Shown here: in pieces, positions 34,216 to 50,016 of the stretch | Layout of the letters: each line of letters opens with the position of its first letter | Position numbering within the stretch: position 1 is the first letter of the stretch | Assembly (NCBI GenBank): GCA_963738405.1 | Contig: CAVTWJ010000005.1 | Span: 46,140-110,139, forward strand | DNA length: 64,000 bases | DNA from: a candidate division FCPU426 bacterium | GTDB lineage: Bacteria; Oederibacteriota; Muellerivitia; Muellerivitales; Muellerivitaceae | Reading direction: 5' to 3' | Program-made: the position numbers and the translations under genes | Notes under the pieces: model-generated | Databases searched by the model: none | Seen by the model: the letters and a program-made list of their open reading frames with translations, nothing else | Told to the model about the DNA's origin: nothing

Positions 34216-34246
34216 AAGACCACCCCTTTAAGAACACCTAATTATT

Positions 34247-34342
34247 CACCACCAAGGCACCAAGACACCAAGAAAACCATCAATGTTTTTAAACCTAAAT
34301 CTTAGATTTTGCCTTACTTGGCGTCTTAGCGTCTTGGCGGTA
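34247..34342. repeat. Palindromic element copy 1 (26-bp arms of 8-bp units, 44-nt AT-rich spacer)
   Basis: Left arm CACCACCAAGGCACCAAGACACCAAG (34247-34272); right arm CTTGGCGTCTTAGCGTCTTGGCGGTA (34317-34342). Confidence 0.9.
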
Positions 34343-36341
34343 AATCATTTGTTATCGTTTGGAGGAGTTGGAGAAGGTTTTGCTTGGCCTGGGCGTTGTC
34401 CGGGTCCAACTGAAGCGTCCGTTGGTACATGGCTTTGGACTCCGCCTTATGCCCCAGCAGGAACAGGCAGTTGGCCTCGTCCACCAGCGCTGGAACGCAG
34501 GTAGGATAGTCGAAAACCAATTTTTGATAAATCACTAATGCGCCCGAATAATCCTTGCGGCCTACTTTGTCACGGGCTTCACTGTAGGCCTGCAGTTGAA
34601 AAATCAATTGAGGATCTAGGGCAATGGCCCTTTTCATTTCCGCATCGGCTTCCGATGCCCGGCCTAGCCTTTCAAGGGTCTTACTCTTTTTAAAATGCAC
34701 GAGCACATAATCCGGTTCCAACGCCGTAACCTGATTGAAATCCTCAAGCGCCTTTTCATCATCCCCCATTTGCCCCCGGTTCTCGTAAGTCGATCCCCTC
34801 AAATAAAGGGCCATGACATTCAGGGGGTCCAGTCGAATTGAGTTGTCGTAAGCCTTTAAGGCCCCTTCCCATTGTTTCGATTCGGATAACCCCACCGCCC
34901 ATTTCAACTGCACATCCGCCCATTGCTTCTCAAAAGCCGTCCAGATTTGAAAAAGGCATAGCCCCGATGCCAAGAGGGTCAGGGCCAGCCACGTGAATCG
35001 GACCCCCGCCAGCGAGGTTTCTTTCGCTTGTATGGGAAAACCCGCCATGCGGTAAAAGCGCTGGGAAAGGGCCACCGGAAGAGCCGCCAAAAAGAGCAGG
35101 GGCACCAACGTGGTTGGAAGGGTGCTGTTGAGGTCGAAAAGATTATCCAGGGCCGCCCCGCCCAAGGCCGCGAATGCCCCCGCACCCAAGGCAGGGGGAA
35201 TGGCATTGGCTTTATAGAGTTTCCACCATTGGTAAAGCACCGCTCCCCAGAAGGCCAAAAGCAATCCCAAGCCGATAAACCCCGTCTGGGCTATCCACGA
35301 AAGCACCCAGTTGTGGGGGTCGTTCACCTCGTAGCTTCTTTGGGTTTGACCCATCATCAGGCTCAAGGGCCGGTAGGCCGGGTATAGGGCCGAAAAGGTT
35401 CCGAAACCCACCCCGGTTAATGGGTGGTCCAAAATCATCTTCCAAACCCCCGACCAAAGCTGTCGGCGGAAAACGACGGAAGGATTTTGCGGGTCCGCCA
35501 AAGGGCCCAATATTTGAACCGCCGGGTATGCGCCTAACAGGAAGGTCCCGCCCAATAAAAGCAAAAGGGAATTTCTTTGGTTTTTCCCTTCCCCCTCCGC
35601 CTTGGTTCCCAAAAGAAAAAAAACGAGGAACAAAATAATTCCAAATCCCAAGCCCAATATTCCCGCCTTGCTCCGGGTTAAAAACAATGCGCCCAGGCTC
35701 AGGGCCGTCGTAAGTATCCAAACCATTTTGGTGATCGGTTGCCCGGCGCGAAAGTAAAGGGCAAGACCTACAGGCCAAACCAAAAGAAGAAACCCGGCCA
35801 AAAAGTCCGGGTTTCCCATCCCGGCAATCGGGTGGCCTGAATATTGGTTTTGAACCAAATCAAGGAGCGGCCCCTTGCCCCATCCAGCGGCTTGAGCAAT
35901 CGCCCTGATCGAACTTCCCAGGGCCGCCGCCATAAAGACAATTAAAAGATTTTCCGCCTGCCAAAGTTCCATGCAGACCAGCGTGAAAAGAAGAAAAAGC
36001 AAAAGAAAGCAGATCCAATTTCCCCAGGCTTCCCAGCCGATTTGGGAACAAGGTGAAAGAAGTACGGTCATAGCCGTCCATAAAACCAAACCCAGAAGGG
36101 GCCATAGGGCCGCCGAATAAGCCCATTGGATCTTTTGCGTTTGAAAAACCCGCCAGAACCATAGGGCCAGGGCCAAGAACACCACGATCCGACAGAGGGA
36201 TACTTTAGGAAGAAGAAGGTCCATTCCCTTGTCCTGCGTGATAAAAGGCACCAGAAACATAACTAGAACGGATAAAAATAACGGGGCGCGGTCCAGCGCC
36301 AATTCCCATCCTAGAATTTGATTCGGTGGAGTTTCTTTCAC
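34326..36341 (-). CDS. O-antigen ligase (Wzy_C)/O-OTase-like membrane protein with C-terminal TPRs
   Basis: Multi-TM; GNPDFLAG, LTRSKAG, R..LW....MI.DHPL.GVG.G.F, PHN motifs; TPR tail. Confidence 0.85.
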   Translation of the reverse strand: MKETPPNQILGWELALDRAPLFLSVLVMFLVPFITQDKGMDLLLPKVSLCRIVVFLALALWFWRVFQTQKIQWAYSAALWPLLGLVLWTAMTVLLSPCSQIGWEAWGNWICFLLLFLLFTLVCMELWQAENLLIVFMAAALGSSIRAIAQAAGWGKGPLLDLVQNQYSGHPIAGMGNPDFLAGFLLLVWPVGLALYFRAGQPITKMVWILTTALSLGALFLTRSKAGILGLGFGIILFLVFFLLGTKAEGEGKNQRNSLLLLLGGTFLLGAYPAVQILGPLADPQNPSVVFRRQLWSGVWKMILDHPLTGVGFGTFSALYPAYRPLSLMMGQTQRSYEVNDPHNWVLSWIAQTGFIGLGLLLAFWGAVLYQWWKLYKANAIPPALGAGAFAALGGAALDNLFDLNSTLPTTLVPLLFLAALPVALSQRFYRMAGFPIQAKETSLAGVRFTWLALTLLASGLCLFQIWTAFEKQWADVQLKWAVGLSESKQWEGALKAYDNSIRLDPLNVMALYLRGSTYENRGQMGDDEKALEDFNQVTALEPDYVLVHFKKSKTLERLGRASEADAEMKRAIALDPQLIFQLQAYSEARDKVGRKDYSGALVIYQKLVFDYPTCVPALVDEANCLFLLGHKAESKAMYQRTLQLDPDNAQAKQNLLQLLQTITNDLPPRR

Positions 36342-40091: not shown

Positions 40092-40125
40092 AAAAGGCGT
40101 TCGTTACCCAACGAACGCCTTTTTT
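40092..40125. terminator. Bidirectional intrinsic terminator between rpsT and holA
   Basis: AAAAGGCGTTCGTT-ACCC-AACGAACGCCTTTT perfect stem flanked by A and T runs. Confidence 0.85.
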
Positions 40126-41152
40126 ATTTTCGGTATACCCCTGCTTTCGACGGCGCAGTCCATTTCAATAGCCATGTTTCCAAAGCAACGGACACCGCAT
40201 CCTTGCCCAGCCGCCCGGTTACCATCCCCGCTTGAAGGTGAATTAAATCCCTCAGAGCCTCTTTTAATTCCGACGCCTTGTACTTGCCACTTTGATCCCA
40301 TAACACCTTAACCCGGTAGGGGTTCAAACCCATCTGGGAAGAGAGTGCCCCTTGGTCTAAGCCCTTGGCGCGTCCCATACACATCCCCAGTAATTCCCTG
40401 ACCCTTCCATAAAGCAAAGCCAAGGTTCCGGGGTCGGGGCCTCCCGGCATTTGGGAAAGCATCCGCAGAGCCTTTTCCCCCTGCCTTGAACCCACGGCGT
40501 CCAAAAAGGGAAAAACCTCGGCCTCAACCCCGGGAGCCGGCAGTTCTTTCACATCCTCCGTCGTGGCACTTTTTCGGGGATGGATCATCAGGGCCAGCTG
40601 TTCCAAGGCCCTTTTCAGATAGGCCAAGTCCGGGCCGATTTTTTGCACCAAAAGCTGGGAAGCGTCTTCTGGCAGTGCAAGCCCCAAAGTCTGAGCCTCG
40701 ACCTTGACCATGGCGGGGATTTTCCAATCGGGTATTTCGGAGCATTGCACTGCCCAACCTGACCGCTCGAAGGCATTGACGGCTTTGGCGTTTTTGCGCA
40801 ATCCTTCGGCGAGAAAGATCAAATAAGACGACCCATTCAAATTGGCGGCGTAATCCTTAAGCCGTTCCACTGCATCATCCGACCTTCCGCCCAGGAATTT
40901 TTCGGCCCGTTTGACAGTGAGAAGTTGGCTTTGGGAAAAAAGCGAGACCGTTTGAGCCGCGTTGAGCACATCGCCGATGGAATGTACCCCGCCCTCAAAA
41001 ATCTGATACTCGGCTTGGGGATTGGCCAGATCAAAGGCCTTTTTGTAGGCTTGAACCCCTTCGGAAATCACACCCTCGGCTTCGCCGAATAGCAAAACCA
41101 GGTTGGCCAGGGGGCCCTTTTTGAGCCGGGATTGGAAATCGTCAAAGTACAA
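40124..41152 (-). CDS. holA: DNA polymerase III delta subunit
   Basis: LLFGE, AQTVSLFS..L..VK, LEQL, VF...DA; leuS-lptE-holA-rpsT synteny. Confidence 0.88.
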   Translation of the reverse strand: MYFDDFQSRLKKGPLANLVLLFGEAEGVISEGVQAYKKAFDLANPQAEYQIFEGGVHSIGDVLNAAQTVSLFSQSQLLTVKRAEKFLGGRSDDAVERLKDYAANLNGSSYLIFLAEGLRKNAKAVNAFERSGWAVQCSEIPDWKIPAMVKVEAQTLGLALPEDASQLLVQKIGPDLAYLKRALEQLALMIHPRKSATTEDVKELPAPGVEAEVFPFLDAVGSRQGEKALRMLSQMPGGPDPGTLALLYGRVRELLGMCMGRAKGLDQGALSSQMGLNPYRVKVLWDQSGKYKASELKEALRDLIHLQAGMVTGRLGKDAVSVALETWLLKWTAPSKAGVYRK

Positions 41153-41170: not shown

Positions 41171-41911
41171 TCATTCCAAACCCTGGGGTATTTGCTGAAT
41201 GGGCTGGGCGTTCAATCCCGGAATGGAAAAGGTGGAGGGGCCGGAAGGGGCCGGGGCGCTCTGGGCGGAAGGCGTTCCCATGGGAATAATTCCCTGAGGC
41301 GCTTTGGGCGCCTGTGCCTTCACGTAAAAGAAAGTGATGCCTACCAGCTGCCCATCCACAATCAAGTGAATGGTGTAGAGGCCCACATCCTTAGGCAAAC
41401 CCGTCTGGCCGAATTGCGCGTTCATGTCGTTCATGTCGGCGGTGGCAGTAACTAAATACCATTGGTAGGTTTGGTTTTCGATGGTCAGGAGGCGGTCAGT
41501 GAATCCCACCGTAAATTCCTGGTCGTGCTTTAAAATTTTGAACCCTAAGGGATTGTAGATTTCAACCGACACCGTGTGGATTCGGCTGGCGGGCTTCATG
41601 AGAAAGTAGGCGAAATAATTGATCTGCTGGTTTTTATCCAGGTAGAAGTAATTGACGCTGTCCGCTGGATATTCGTTGACGATCTTGGAGCAGGTGATCA
41701 TGTGGCTCACCACAACCTCCTGGTTGGGTGCGGGGGCGGCAGAAGGCCCAGCGCCGGGCGCGTCGGTGACTACGTTTCCCGTCTGGCTTTGAGGGGCGTT
41801 TTTGGGGATGCCCCCCGTGATCCATTGCAGGTCGGCCCAGGCGGTTGAGACCCAAACCAGTGCGCCGACCAGTGCTATACCCTTGAGGATATTTAAGTTT
41901 TTCATTTCCAT
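41171..41911 (-). CDS. Hypothetical exported protein (beta-rich core, Pro/Ala-rich linkers)
   Basis: Signal peptide ending AWA; 246-aa ORF in operon context; no family recognised. Confidence 0.6.
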   Translation of the reverse strand: MEMKNLNILKGIALVGALVWVSTAWADLQWITGGIPKNAPQSQTGNVVTDAPGAGPSAAPAPNQEVVVSHMITCSKIVNEYPADSVNYFYLDKNQQINYFAYFLMKPASRIHTVSVEIYNPLGFKILKHDQEFTVGFTDRLLTIENQTYQWYLVTATADMNDMNAQFGQTGLPKDVGLYTIHLIVDGQLVGITFFYVKAQAPKAPQGIIPMGTPSAQSAPAPSGPSTFSIPGLNAQPIQQIPQGLE

Positions 41912-41943
41912 TCCCTTTCGGCCCGGGTTTCACAATATCAACA

Positions 41944-42564
41944 TCAGTTCCCCTGCAAAACCCTTTCAACCACCCGCCGGGCCATATCCTGCTCCAATTG
42001 CTGGAGGGCCTGGTCCCGGGTTTGGGGGATGGCCCCCACATTGTAAGTCGTGTAGTAATAAACGCTGTCGGTCAGGCCTGTGACTTCCGTCAGGGTCTTG
42101 TTTTCCACGTGGTCCAGGGCCACGGCGTCGTAATCGAGTGAAATCAGGTACTGCAAAACCGCGTTGGTTTTGGGGTCCTGAACCTGCGGTGTTTCGCTGT
42201 ACTTTTTGATCGTCACCTTCACCACCATGTCCGAATGGTCCGGGTCCTCAATGCCGACCCGCCCATCCAGTTGAAATTGCTGGATCAGGTTTTGAGTGAG
42301 GGCCGTATCCAAACCGAACCAGCTGGTTCGGTTTTCAGTCGGCGCGACCCCGACGGTTTTAATATAGGACGGAATAATCATAATGGAGGGACGGCACCCC
42401 GACAAAATAAACCCTGTCACCACCAAGACACCAAGACACCAAGAAAGACAAAATGTTTTAGATCTATATCTTTTAAAACCGTTTAAACCTTTACGTTTTT
42501 TCTCAATAAATGTTTCCTTGGTGTCTTGGTGCCTTGGTGGTGGAATGGGCGTTGTCTTTTTCAT
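41944..42564 (-). CDS. lptE: LPS-assembly lipoprotein LptE-family protein with extended signal peptide
   Basis: Lipobox LSGC; P..IKTV.V...ENRT, LT..L...F..DGR, C-terminal helix; ATG overlaps the leuS stop (ATGA); position between leuS and holA. Confidence 0.8.
   Translation of the reverse strand: MKKTTPIPPPRHQDTKETFIEKKRKGLNGFKRYRSKTFCLSWCLGVLVVTGFILSGCRPSIMIIPSYIKTVGVAPTENRTSWFGLDTALTQNLIQQFQLDGRVGIEDPDHSDMVVKVTIKKYSETPQVQDPKTNAVLQYLISLDYDAVALDHVENKTLTEVTGLTDSVYYYTTYNVGAIPQTRDQALQQLEQDMARRVVERVLQGN
42418..42542. repeat. Palindromic element copy 2, inside the lptE coding sequence
   Basis: Left arm CACCACCAAGACACCAAGACACCAAG (42418-42443); right arm CTTGGTGTCTTGGTGCCTTGGTGGTG (42517-42542); 73-nt AT-rich spacer. 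Confidence 0.92.
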
Positions 42565-45065
42565 GCGGGCCTCACAATGAAATTCGCCAGCTTGTCCTGA
42601 ACCCAGATCAATTTTTGGACCTTTGATCCTTCGAGACATTTCAGCACCTTTTCATCCATTTCCAAAAGAACCTTCACCTTCGATTCGTCAATTCCCATCG
42701 GGACCGTCAAGCGGGAGCGCAATTTCCCGTTGATTTGAACCGCAATCTCCACCACGTCCGCCTTGAGCCAGGCGGGGTCGTGGGAGGGCCAACCCCCAGC
42801 GAAAAGTCCGCCTTCTTTGCCCAAGCCCTTCCACATTTCCTCGGCGATATGGGGGGTGAAAGGGCCCATCAGCCTCACCAAGGCTTCCAGCGCTTCCCGG
42901 ATTAAAGAAGTTTTAGCGTCTTCCTTGTCTTTATAGTCGGTCAGCAAGTTGAGCAGTTCCATCATAGCGCTGATGGCGGTATTAAACCGGAACCCCCCCA
43001 CCATGTCCTCGCTCACCTTGGCGATGGTTTGGTGGGTTTTGCGTTTCAGTTCCTTATCGGCGTCGGTCGACGCTTCCGGCTTACCGTTTGTCGCCGCGTC
43101 CAAACGTGATAGAAATTCCTGGTAAAGCTTCCAGACCCTATTCAAGAAACGGAAGCCACCTTCAACCGCCCGATCGTCCCATTCGACATCCCTTTCAGGG
43201 GGGCCGATAAAGAGGGTATAGAGGCGGAAGGTATCGGAGCCGTATTTGTTAATCAAGTCATCCGGCTGTACCGAGTTGCCCTTACTTTTGGACATCTTGA
43301 CCCCACCCTTGGTGATCATGCCCTGTGTAAAGAGACGGGCGAAGGGTTCGTCGAAATTAATAAAACCCTGGTCTTTTAGGACCTTGGTGATGAAACGGGA
43401 ATACAGAAGATGCAGGATGGCGTGTTCCACCCCGCCGATATATTGGTCCACGGGAAGCCATTGGTTAACGGTTTTCTTGTCGAAGGCCTGGCCGGAATCC
43501 TTGGCGGAGACATAGCGCATGTAATACCAACTGGAATCGACAAAGGTATCCATGGTGTCGGTTTCACGCCGGGCCATGCCCCCGCACTTGGGGCAGGTGG
43601 TATTGACGAATTCGGGAATGCTTTTTAAGGGGGATTCGCCGGTCGGTTTAAACTCCACCGCACGGGGCAGCTTCACCGGCAGGTCCTTGTCGGGAACCGG
43701 AATCCAGCCATCCTTCTCGCAATGGATCATCGGGATAGGAGCGCCCCAATAACGCTGGCGGGAAATCAGCCAGTCCCGAAGGCGGTAGGTGACCGCTTCT
43801 TTCCCCAGACCCTTTTCCTTGAGCCATTCGGACATTTTCTTTTTGGCTTGCGATACGGATAACCCATCCAAGAAACCGGAATTGATCAACTTGCCGTCGT
43901 CGGTATAGGGTTCGGCTTGCGGATCATAAACATGGCTTTCGGCCTTCCAAGCATGCTTGACCTCGTCGGTAGGGTCGATGACCTGGATGATATGGATGTT
44001 ATATTTCTTGGCGAATTCAAAGTCGCGGGTGTCGTGGGCCGGAACCGCCATGATGGCCCCCGTGCCGTAATTGGTCAGCACATAGTTGGCGATGAAGATG
44101 GGTATGGCCTTGCCGTTGACCGGGTTCGTGGCCTTCACGCCGATATCCATACCCAGTTTCTCGGCATTTTCGCCGATTCGGTCTGTGGAGCTTTGTTTTT
44201 TCACCTTCTCCACAAAGGCCTTTACTTCGCCTTCCTGGGGTTTGCCTTTCACGAGCGGCAGGACCAGGGGGTGTTCGGGTGCCAGCACCATATAGGTGGC
44301 TCCAAACAAGGTATCGGGACGAGTGGTGAAGACGGTGATGGTTTCGCCCGATCCTTCCACCTTGAAATCAACCTCGGCACCTTCGCTTTTGCCGATCCAG
44401 TTTTTCTGCATGGTCTTGACCCGGTCGGGCCAGTTTTCGAGCCGGTCGATATCTTTCAAAAGCCTTTCGGCGTAGGCGGTAATTTTAAAAAACCATTGTT
44501 CCAGGTCCTTTTGCTCCACTTCCGAATCGCAGCGCTCGCAATGGCCATCCGTCACCTGCTCGTTGGCCAAAACCGTCATGCAGGAGGGACACCAGTTCAC
44601 ATAGGCTTTCTTGCGGTAGGCCAGCCCCTTTTCGTAGAGGCGCAAGAAGATCCACTGGGTCCAGCGGTAGTAATCGGGAAGGCAGGAAACCACCTCTTTA
44701 TCCCAGTCGTAGCCCATGCCCCAGTCGTAGAACTGGCCCTTCATGCGCTCGATATTCTTGAGGGTCCAATCTTCGGGGTGGATTCCCTTTTGAATGGCGG
44801 CGTTTTCGGCCGGTAACCCGAAAGCGTCAAAACCCATGGGGTTCAGGACGTTATGGCCCTTGGCCCGGAAGTAGCGGAAAACCGCGTCCCCGATGATGTA
44901 GTTGCGTCCGTGGCCGGCGTGGAGAAAGTCCCCTGAAGGGTAAGGAAACATGACCAGGGTGTAATACTTGTTTTCAGGTTTGGACAGGTCGCAGGCAAAG
45001 ACTTTGGCGTCTTTCCAGTGGCGTTTCCAGCGTTGTTCGATTTCGGCGAAGTTATAGGCTTCCAT
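42561..45065 (-). CDS. leuS: Leucine--tRNA ligase
   Basis: MFPYPSG..HAGH, FTTRPDT editing domain, DW.ISRQRYWG.PIP, KMSKS. Confidence 0.98.
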   Translation of the reverse strand: MEAYNFAEIEQRWKRHWKDAKVFACDLSKPENKYYTLVMFPYPSGDFLHAGHGRNYIIGDAVFRYFRAKGHNVLNPMGFDAFGLPAENAAIQKGIHPEDWTLKNIERMKGQFYDWGMGYDWDKEVVSCLPDYYRWTQWIFLRLYEKGLAYRKKAYVNWCPSCMTVLANEQVTDGHCERCDSEVEQKDLEQWFFKITAYAERLLKDIDRLENWPDRVKTMQKNWIGKSEGAEVDFKVEGSGETITVFTTRPDTLFGATYMVLAPEHPLVLPLVKGKPQEGEVKAFVEKVKKQSSTDRIGENAEKLGMDIGVKATNPVNGKAIPIFIANYVLTNYGTGAIMAVPAHDTRDFEFAKKYNIHIIQVIDPTDEVKHAWKAESHVYDPQAEPYTDDGKLINSGFLDGLSVSQAKKKMSEWLKEKGLGKEAVTYRLRDWLISRQRYWGAPIPMIHCEKDGWIPVPDKDLPVKLPRAVEFKPTGESPLKSIPEFVNTTCPKCGGMARRETDTMDTFVDSSWYYMRYVSAKDSGQAFDKKTVNQWLPVDQYIGGVEHAILHLLYSRFITKVLKDQGFINFDEPFARLFTQGMITKGGVKMSKSKGNSVQPDDLINKYGSDTFRLYTLFIGPPERDVEWDDRAVEGGFRFLNRVWKLYQEFLSRLDAATNGKPEASTDADKELKRKTHQTIAKVSEDMVGGFRFNTAISAMMELLNLLTDYKDKEDAKTSLIREALEALVRLMGPFTPHIAEEMWKGLGKEGGLFAGGWPSHDPAWLKADVVEIAVQINGKLRSRLTVPMGIDESKVKVLLEMDEKVLKCLEGSKVQKLIWVQDKLANFIVRPA

Positions 45066-49836: not shown

Positions 49837-49846
49837 AGACTCATCT

Positions 49847-49993
49847 CACCGCCAAGACACAAAGACACCAAGAAAATCACAAACAAATACGGGAAGTTCT
49901 AAAACTTTTTACGACTCATCAAACATTCAGCTCTTAAGAGGTTTTGTAAGCATCAAAAATTCTTTAACTTGGTGTCTTTGTGTCTTGGTGGTG
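49847..49993. repeat. Palindromic element copy 3 (intergenic, between divergent genes)
   Basis: Left arm CACCGCCAAGACACAAAGACACCAAG (49847-49872); right arm CTTGGTGTCTTTGTGTCTTGGTGGTG (49968-49993); 95-nt AT-rich spacer. Confidence 0.92.
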
Positions 49994-50016
49994 AATTGTT
50001 GGTTTATAATCCGCCC

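Follow-up and report, generated by a model that had tools for sequence, protein, structure and literature searches.

Most of the signal peptide of LptE in this bacterium is probably supplied by a domesticated palindromic element, which lies in frame in the first part of lptE and is translated from an ATG coupled to the end of leuS. The lptE gene encodes an outer-membrane lipoprotein and is normally essential. The element is one of many copies of a repeat dispersed through the genome, and copies of it are also present in the lptE leader of relatives. Coordinates given without a contig name refer to the window, that is, the whole stretch of 64,000 nucleotides that was analysed.

The lptE gene is located on the minus strand at 41944-42564, with the ATG at 42564, the stop at 41944 and 206 codons from the leuS-coupled ATG in the list of open reading frames. 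A Pfam profile search matched residues 68-201 to LptE, PF04390 (E 3.5e-10; 41 bits, cut-off 23), and this was the single LptE match in the whole genome. The TGA of leuS (42563-42561) overlaps the ATG of lptE, reading ATGA, and the GAGG motif found ahead of this ATG is also present in two relatives of the same genus (G002 and G003). The parts of the locus are:

42561-45065, minus strand: leuS, leucyl-tRNA synthetase (list of open reading frames; Pfam tRNA-synt_1_2 at 1.3e-70, tRNA-synt_1 and Anticodon_1)
42570-42573, minus strand: GAGG, a Shine-Dalgarno-like motif 5 nt ahead of the lptE ATG, with a putative function as such
42394-42564, minus strand: LptE leader, 57 codons from the ATG to the lipobox Cys
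42514-42547, minus strand: gene-proximal arm of the element, three CACCAAG heptamers on the gene strand, encoding the hydrophilic PPPRHQDTK
42447-42513, minus strand: AT-rich spacer, encoding the basic stretch ahead of the h-region, with no in-frame ATG, GTG or TTG
42417-42446, minus strand: distal arm, three CTTGGTG heptamers on the gene strand, encoding SWCLGVLVV, most of the h-region
42394-42405, minus strand: lipobox L-S-G-C, residues 54-57, with the Cys57 codon at 42396-42394

The leader read from this ATG has an n-region of 36 residues with a net charge of +9, followed by an uncharged run of 20 residues (mean Kyte-Doolittle value 1.89) and then the lipobox, for which the consensus is [LVI][ASTVI][GAS]C. 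With a basic n-region, a hydrophobic h-region and a lipobox in this order, it fits the layout of a type II signal peptide. The Cys at residue 57 lies beyond the usual type II length of about 15-30 residues, and a lipoprotein leader so far above the usual length counts against the explanation preferred here.

The original prediction, which was made from the sequence alone, had read the same leader, MKKTTPI-...-TGFILSG-C, from the leuS-coupled ATG to Cys57. It had also placed a palindromic element inside the leader, and this was borne out. The element comprises 131 bp (42417-42547) that are read in frame, and its inverted-repeat arms (42418-42446 and 42514-42542) are 29 nt long, 93% complementary and separated by 67 nt, so that it covers about residues 6-50. 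The arm coordinates agree with the assignment of the basic n-region to the spacer and of most of the h-region to the distal arm. The claim that the leader would be too short without the element was roughly right, in that removal would bring the Cys to about residue 15, compared with a shortest position of 17 among 25 orthologues.

When folded as RNA, the 211-nt region around the element reaches -78 kcal/mol compared with -50 +/- 4.6 in 200 shuffles (z -6.1), with no shuffle as low, and it forms a stem of about 30 bp. A terminator scan found no intrinsic-terminator-like site at the element, and no Rfam match came near the gathering score; the best one had 30.2 bits against 135, and the matches were to generic long-hairpin miRNA models only. 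A stem of this length within a coding region is a plausible substrate for RNase III, and cleavage by this enzyme could separate the ATG from the h-region on the message; the stem could possibly also gate translation. One independent contig, obtained from soil DNA runs of one study, matches 42481-42603 without any difference and spans only part of the element. No RNA run was listed for 41900-43100, and the runs listed were three soil DNA runs of one study with small shares.

On its other side, lptE is separated from holA (40124-41152) by one extra open reading frame. This frame of 246 codons (window 41171-41911, minus strand) splits the usual lptE-holA pair; its product begins with what resembles a signal peptide and has no match in Pfam. 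A search for signal peptidase II (PF01252) found no gene in this genome (90.7% complete); the gene was detected in all three relatives of the genus and in 17 of the 21 genomes searched. Signal peptidase II genes form tandem pairs in G001-G006, G008 and G012, i.e. in most genomes of the family. The LptD model (PF04453) gave no match in this genome; it matches only two of 14 control genomes and is too narrow for a judgement.

Start codons found in frame from the leuS stop to the Cys codon are the ATG at 42564, one TTG and two GTG in the distal arm (42426-42418), and a last TTG three codons ahead of the Cys. The codons in the distal arm would place the Cys at residue 11, 10 and 9, respectively, and leave no n-region. 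It had been claimed that no other in-frame ATG, GTG or TTG leaves an n-region, and this holds for all the remaining candidates, which put the Cys at residues 4-11. A start at the leuS-coupled ATG, with translation through the whole element, would be the most likely one in this genome. The uncharged run of 20 residues in this form falls within the 12-20 residues of the other orthologues, all but G001. The frame is open from the leuS-adjacent ATG in all four genomes of the genus despite spacers that cannot be aligned. A second ATG is found near the distal arm in G002 and G003, and the long form is therefore not required there.

Translation might instead begin at a non-canonical ATT in the spacer (42507-42505), which is located 6 nt after an AAGGAA motif. 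The leader would then have about 38 residues, a more usual length, and the proximal arm would be left untranslated as a ribosome-binding region. Two relatives agree with this reading, in that the ATG of G007 follows an AAGGA on the inner edge of the proximal arm at the same distance and the ATG of G012 follows GAAGGAAGG. However, ATT start codons are rare, the site adjoins a very stable stem, and the leuS-coupled ATG and the GAGG motif are kept together in G000 (this genome), G002 and G003. We therefore regard the ATT start as unlikely, and with it the whole signal peptide would still be supplied by the element.

It is very unlikely that the element is a mere intercistronic hairpin between leuS and lptE, with LptE starting at the TTG or GTG codons of the distal arm and the long frame open by chance. 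An open frame is not rare in itself, since no stop interrupts 91 of the 318 frames (0.29) that run through the 53 paired copies of this genome, and 38 of the 53, in a family with mostly intergenic copies, are not crossed by a stop-free frame of 100 codons. GGTG-like ribosome-binding motifs are also found ahead of the distal-arm codons. Such a start would, however, leave 8-10 residues and no n-region before the Cys, which is below all the other 24 orthologues, and the start codons would be buried in the stem. The frame is also open in three more members of the genus with unrelated spacers. Even then the start codon and the residues of the h-region would be derived from the element. The hydrophobic core would thus come from the distal arm whether translation starts at the preferred ATG, at the ATT or in the distal arm.

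A search of 41 related genomes found LptE in 39, and 25 loci were examined, this genome included; 20 were from these genomes and five were additional. In all 25, leuS lies directly upstream of lptE and a Cys is present at the aligned lipobox position. The element or its remnants were found in the lptE leader of eight genomes, and the loci are divided as follows:

Leader without the element: 16 genomes
Leader with full arms: G000, G002, G007 and G009
Leader with degenerate or partial arms: G003, G001, G012 and G005
Copy of a CGCCAAG variant farther upstream in the same leuS-lptE gap: G006

In the 16 orthologues that lack the element the leader is an ordinary one, as had been anticipated for an alignment of relatives, and places the Cys at residues 17-29; lptE then starts at or beside the leuS stop (ATGA, TGATG, TTGA and similar). 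In the orthologues with the element, the distal arm is kept in the same frame, and the last heptamer starts 31 nt ahead of the Cys codon in G000, G002, G007, G009 and G012, representing four genera. The start candidates are an ATG in the spacer of G007, a TTG in the spacer of G009 and an ATG just past the remnant of the proximal arm in G012. There is no usable start between the leuS stop and the spacer in G007 and G009, so the h-region is encoded by the arm in both. In G007, G009 and G012, which belong to three genera, the only workable start is within the element, and the whole signal peptide would be derived from it. The distal arms kept in frame and these internal starts support the idea, put forward in the original prediction, that a repeat has been domesticated as a targeting signal.

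The arms of G000 and G002 are identical at 44 of 46 positions (about 96%), and the spacer cannot be aligned between species. At four-fold sites of the flanking leuS and lptE the same two genomes are identical at 119 of 232 positions (0.51), and the identity is 0.41-0.54 in comparisons with seven relatives. The arm identity is far above that of the four-fold sites, and the arms are thus held at the nucleotide level. Selection at the protein level on the h-region would not explain this. The cause is either selection on the DNA or RNA, or copying from other members of the repeat family.

A tree was constructed from the C-terminus of LeuS together with LptE (25 rows, 648 columns, quick search). 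The four members of the genus form one group, G012 and G007 form a pair, and G009 and G005 each have a neighbour that lacks the element. The carriers do not form one clade, and at least five changes are needed, two of which are forced by well-supported branches; the observed distribution is matched by 13 of 500 shuffles of the labels. A single old insertion is consequently not proven. The identical boundary at -31 would nevertheless favour one old insertion followed by losses, and the copy at another place in G006 shows that the leuS-lptE gap has been hit more than once.

The shared position could also be the result of repeated independent insertions at a preferred junction between A-rich and T-rich sequence, as is found in every signal-peptide coding region, and we consider this possible but not probable. 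The patchy distribution with its five changes points in this direction, as do the CGCCAAG-variant copy elsewhere in the gap of G006, the spacers that differ beyond alignment between species and the outer flanks of the 53 copies in this genome, one of them rich in A and the other in T. The same layout also recurs in a gene for cytochrome c assembly (ccs), described below. On the other hand, boundary and frame are identical in the five genomes of four genera, and the degenerate copies in G003, G005 and G012 resemble old insertions in decay. Repeated insertion bears on the history only, and the coding role is untouched by it.

The 3.18-Mb assembly contains 53 paired copies of the element, together with 29 left-only and 21 right-only matches, among which some single ones of 15 nt are due to chance. 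Paired copies are about 75-240 bp long with arms of about 30 nt and an AT-rich, variable spacer of 30-130 nt. In the consensus of the arm, the CACCAAG heptamer occurs three times with a spacing of 8 nt, and the outer end is of the TTCACC type. None of the 53 copies was seen to end in a direct repeat indicative of a target-site duplication. When all frames are enumerated, the arms prove stop-free in each, except for a TGA when the spacing base is A, and in any frame one arm is always polar (H/Q/T/K/P/R) and the other always hydrophobic (L/G/V/W/C).

A hairpin selected as RNA or DNA was considered for the family and rejected, as two matched changes in both arms were found against 107 changes in one arm among 39 well-registered copies (mean of 7.1 with shuffled partners). 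The spacing bases of the two arms pair in 24 of 78 cases. Since compensatory changes were not seen, the element is best described as a pair of word arrays and not as a hairpin kept perfect by compensation. The long-spaced arm pairs at C22:43105-43740 and C20:53008-53856 contain no transposase, but nested degenerate copies or an unrelated small open reading frame.

Two other copies are found in the window:

34244-34347: copy with hybrid arms (CACCAAG / CGCCAAG-like), between two co-directional genes
49846-49998: copy between divergent genes, with the ATG of the right-hand flavoprotein gene 16 codons past the arm

At the first of these, an open reading frame of 671 codons has its last residues, LPPRR, and its stop within one arm (34326-34347), so the element has reshaped a C-terminus as well. 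Single arms are also found in frame elsewhere in the genome. Those at C9:26075, C12:79039, C14:239783 and C22:50780 are read as PPSLQDTK-like peptides in the linker that follows the membrane segment of four paralogous open reading frames of 674-828 codons. Solo arms are in frame at C2:114381, C7:26667 and C9:362355, in one glycoside-hydrolase-like and two large membrane-protein open reading frames, as guessed from their sequences. No partner arm was found within 400 nt of the single arms inside long open reading frames.

In two further genes of this genome, an ATG just outside a copy opens a frame that runs through the copy into an envelope protein. One is a cytochrome c assembly protein (PF01578, contig C9), where a conserved ATG is followed by the in-frame element and then by the h-region. 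Arms or remnants are present at nine of the 18 loci compared (G000, G001, G002, G003, G005, G006, G009, G011 and G012), and the other nine have ordinary signal peptides. The ATG is within the spacer in G005 and G009, which makes the arm the h-region there as well. Upstream of the ccs orthologue in G008 (L156), the position of the CACCAAG element in other genera is taken by a different short tandem word, CATCCGTGTT-like. Ahead of the other gene, which encodes an outer-membrane-like fn3 protein (C19:30784-32850, L149), lies a composite copy of 200 nt that has a CGCCAAG unit nested in it. An ATG upstream of this copy opens the frame that passes through it, and the last arm of the copy encodes the hydrophobic stretch ahead of a probable cleavage site.

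A different arrangement is found at C23:279082-279168 (L150), where an outer arm end, GGTGGTGA, lies 5 nt ahead of the TTG start of a secreted peptidase-like protein with a signal peptide of its own. The arm end at C23:279082 is likely to be the ribosome-binding site, and arm ends may serve in this way.

The exact 23-mer of the arm was found in at least 119 loci of a collection of species-representative genomes. Among the matches listed there are many phyla, including Azospirillum, Magnetospirillum, Geothrix, Terriglobia, Verrucomicrobia, Desulfuromonadales, Burkholderiales and Fischerella, and 77 of the 119 have both arms. Long pure tandem arrays of the octamer occur at L134, L056 and L104, as if the arms expand by slippage. 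A comparison of shared flanks with the arms masked found an open reading frame for PDDEXK_3 (PF13366) starting about 40 nt inside a single arm at L063, L113 and L137, which are from other phyla.

The genome analysed here has two PF13366 genes (NCBIfam GxxExxY), and both are bracketed by inverted word arrays whose outer ends resemble those in lptE:

C19:29780-30260 (L173): PF13366 gene with CGCCAAG arms (8-nt spacing)
C22:201150-201650 (L172): PF13366 gene with CACAGAG-type arms (about 10-nt spacing)

When 28 PF13366 loci in relatives are added to these two, flanking inverted arrays that reach the score threshold used are present in 19 of 30. Exact CACCAAG arms surround the gene at five loci in relatives (L181, L182, L196, L178 and L185). 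As PF13366 genes are found between arms of the same style, the copy in lptE is a gene-less member of that family. The family is a cross-phylum one, in which full-length members carry a gene for a small GxxExxY (PF13366) PD-(D/E)XK nuclease between the arms. No published description of a GxxExxY/inverted-array repeat family was found in the literature searched. Searches for PDDEXK together with inverted repeats gave nothing relevant among the papers listed, and no paper was found that contains the 15-mers of the arm. A survey from 2012 gives the function of GxxExxY as unknown.

We propose that a gene-less hairpin copy of this mobile family was inserted in the signal-peptide region of lptE, between a short basic N-terminus and the hydrophobic core. 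With stop-free arms, one polar and one hydrophobic, a copy in frame would be read as an added, charged n-region followed by an h-region. The insertion would have been harmless to mature LptE because the leader is predicted to be cut off at the lipobox Cys. The distal arm would since have become the working h-region. The old leuS-coupled ATG would now be followed by translation through the whole element, giving a lipoprotein signal peptide of 57 residues, and in some other genera a new start codon would have arisen in the spacer. The anatomy of the locus, its conservation and the link to the family are observed, and the start site, export and cleavage are inferred.

A broader reading is that cleaved leaders are a systematic safe harbour for the family, with gene-less copies repeatedly adopted as signal-peptide modules (LptE, the cytochrome c assembly protein and the fn3 protein). 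Copies would be ready-made for this because the arms are stop-free and polar-then-hydrophobic in every frame. It would further hold that the perfect arms, having been retained, make translation of lptE depend on the ribosomes of leuS to melt the stem, which would tie outer-membrane assembly to translation capacity. We put this forward as a doubtful suggestion. The domestication of a single copy in lptE, as proposed above, already offers a simple route by which a genome may absorb selfish DNA, where cleaved leaders make insertions cheap and an arm that is hydrophobic in any frame takes over the h-region. It also has a practical side, in that programs that call start codons or predict signal peptides will treat such genes wrongly. 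The large orphan family of GxxExxY proteins would gain another visible effect on its hosts.

Long N-terminal extensions of signal peptides are known from autotransporters, in which an extended signal peptide region precedes a normal n-h-c signal peptide. The LptE leader shares the long extension. However, the extensions of autotransporters are a conserved protein motif and not a mobile DNA repeat, and the proteins are not lipoproteins, whereas the leader of LptE is derived from a mobile repeat and belongs to a lipoprotein.

REP/REPIN sequences with their RAYT transposases resemble the family in having two inverted arms with a variable linker, in being very numerous and in being mostly intergenic. 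REP arms are small imperfect palindromes tagged with GTAG or CGTC, and they are associated with the RAYT transposase. In contrast, the arms of the lptE element are direct arrays of heptamers that are unable to self-pair, and the gene associated with the family encodes a PD-(D/E)XK nuclease. MITEs are similar in their small size and terminal inverted repeats, but the copies studied here lack target-site duplications, and those with a gene hold a PF13366 nuclease and no known transposase.

In-frame palindromic repeats as such have already been described, according to a review (PMC10969869). RPEs, ERIC, BOX and the QMITE of Coxiella share with the lptE element that a short multicopy palindrome is translated in frame within a host protein, as stated in parts of that review and of another paper (PMC5896051). 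The likeness to Rickettsia palindromic elements in the original prediction stands for the mode of action but not for family membership. The sequence family and host phylum differ, as judged from host and arm structure, and the arms of the lptE element are tandem heptamer arrays. RPEs are placed in a surface loop of the mature protein in the accounts cited, whereas the element in lptE is part of a targeting signal that would be cleaved. The words 'signal' and 'transmembrane' are absent from the main text of the review, and searches for MITEs or Rickettsia palindromic elements combined with signal peptides gave nothing relevant in the literature searched. Nor was a description found there of a palindromic repeat turned into the export signal of a normally essential outer-membrane lipoprotein and conserved at the nucleotide level across genera. 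What is new here is that a repeat forms a lipoprotein signal peptide and is kept across genera, and that the repeat/nuclease family itself is undescribed in the literature searched.

The Ssn GIY-YIG nucleases with their NTS/SRM repeats are comparable, as a small nuclease gene is accompanied by its own dispersed hairpins across phyla (Chenal et al. 2025, PMC11893778). From the sections of that paper cited here, they differ in having a GIY-YIG fold in place of PD-(D/E)XK, and SRMs are single hairpins of about 30 bp in place of heptamer arrays. Identity of the element with Ssn/SRM was rejected, as the GIY-YIG gene on contig C9 is flanked by different repeats and one on C21 is merely beside a weak copy. 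The closest likeness is to the GxxExxY cassettes (PF13366 / TIGR04256), which share its style of arm, with a heptamer word repeated at a spacing of 8-10 nt, inverted arrays and outer ends of the TTCACC/TTGAACC type. The copy in lptE lacks the gene of these cassettes, and acting as a signal peptide would be a side effect in the host.
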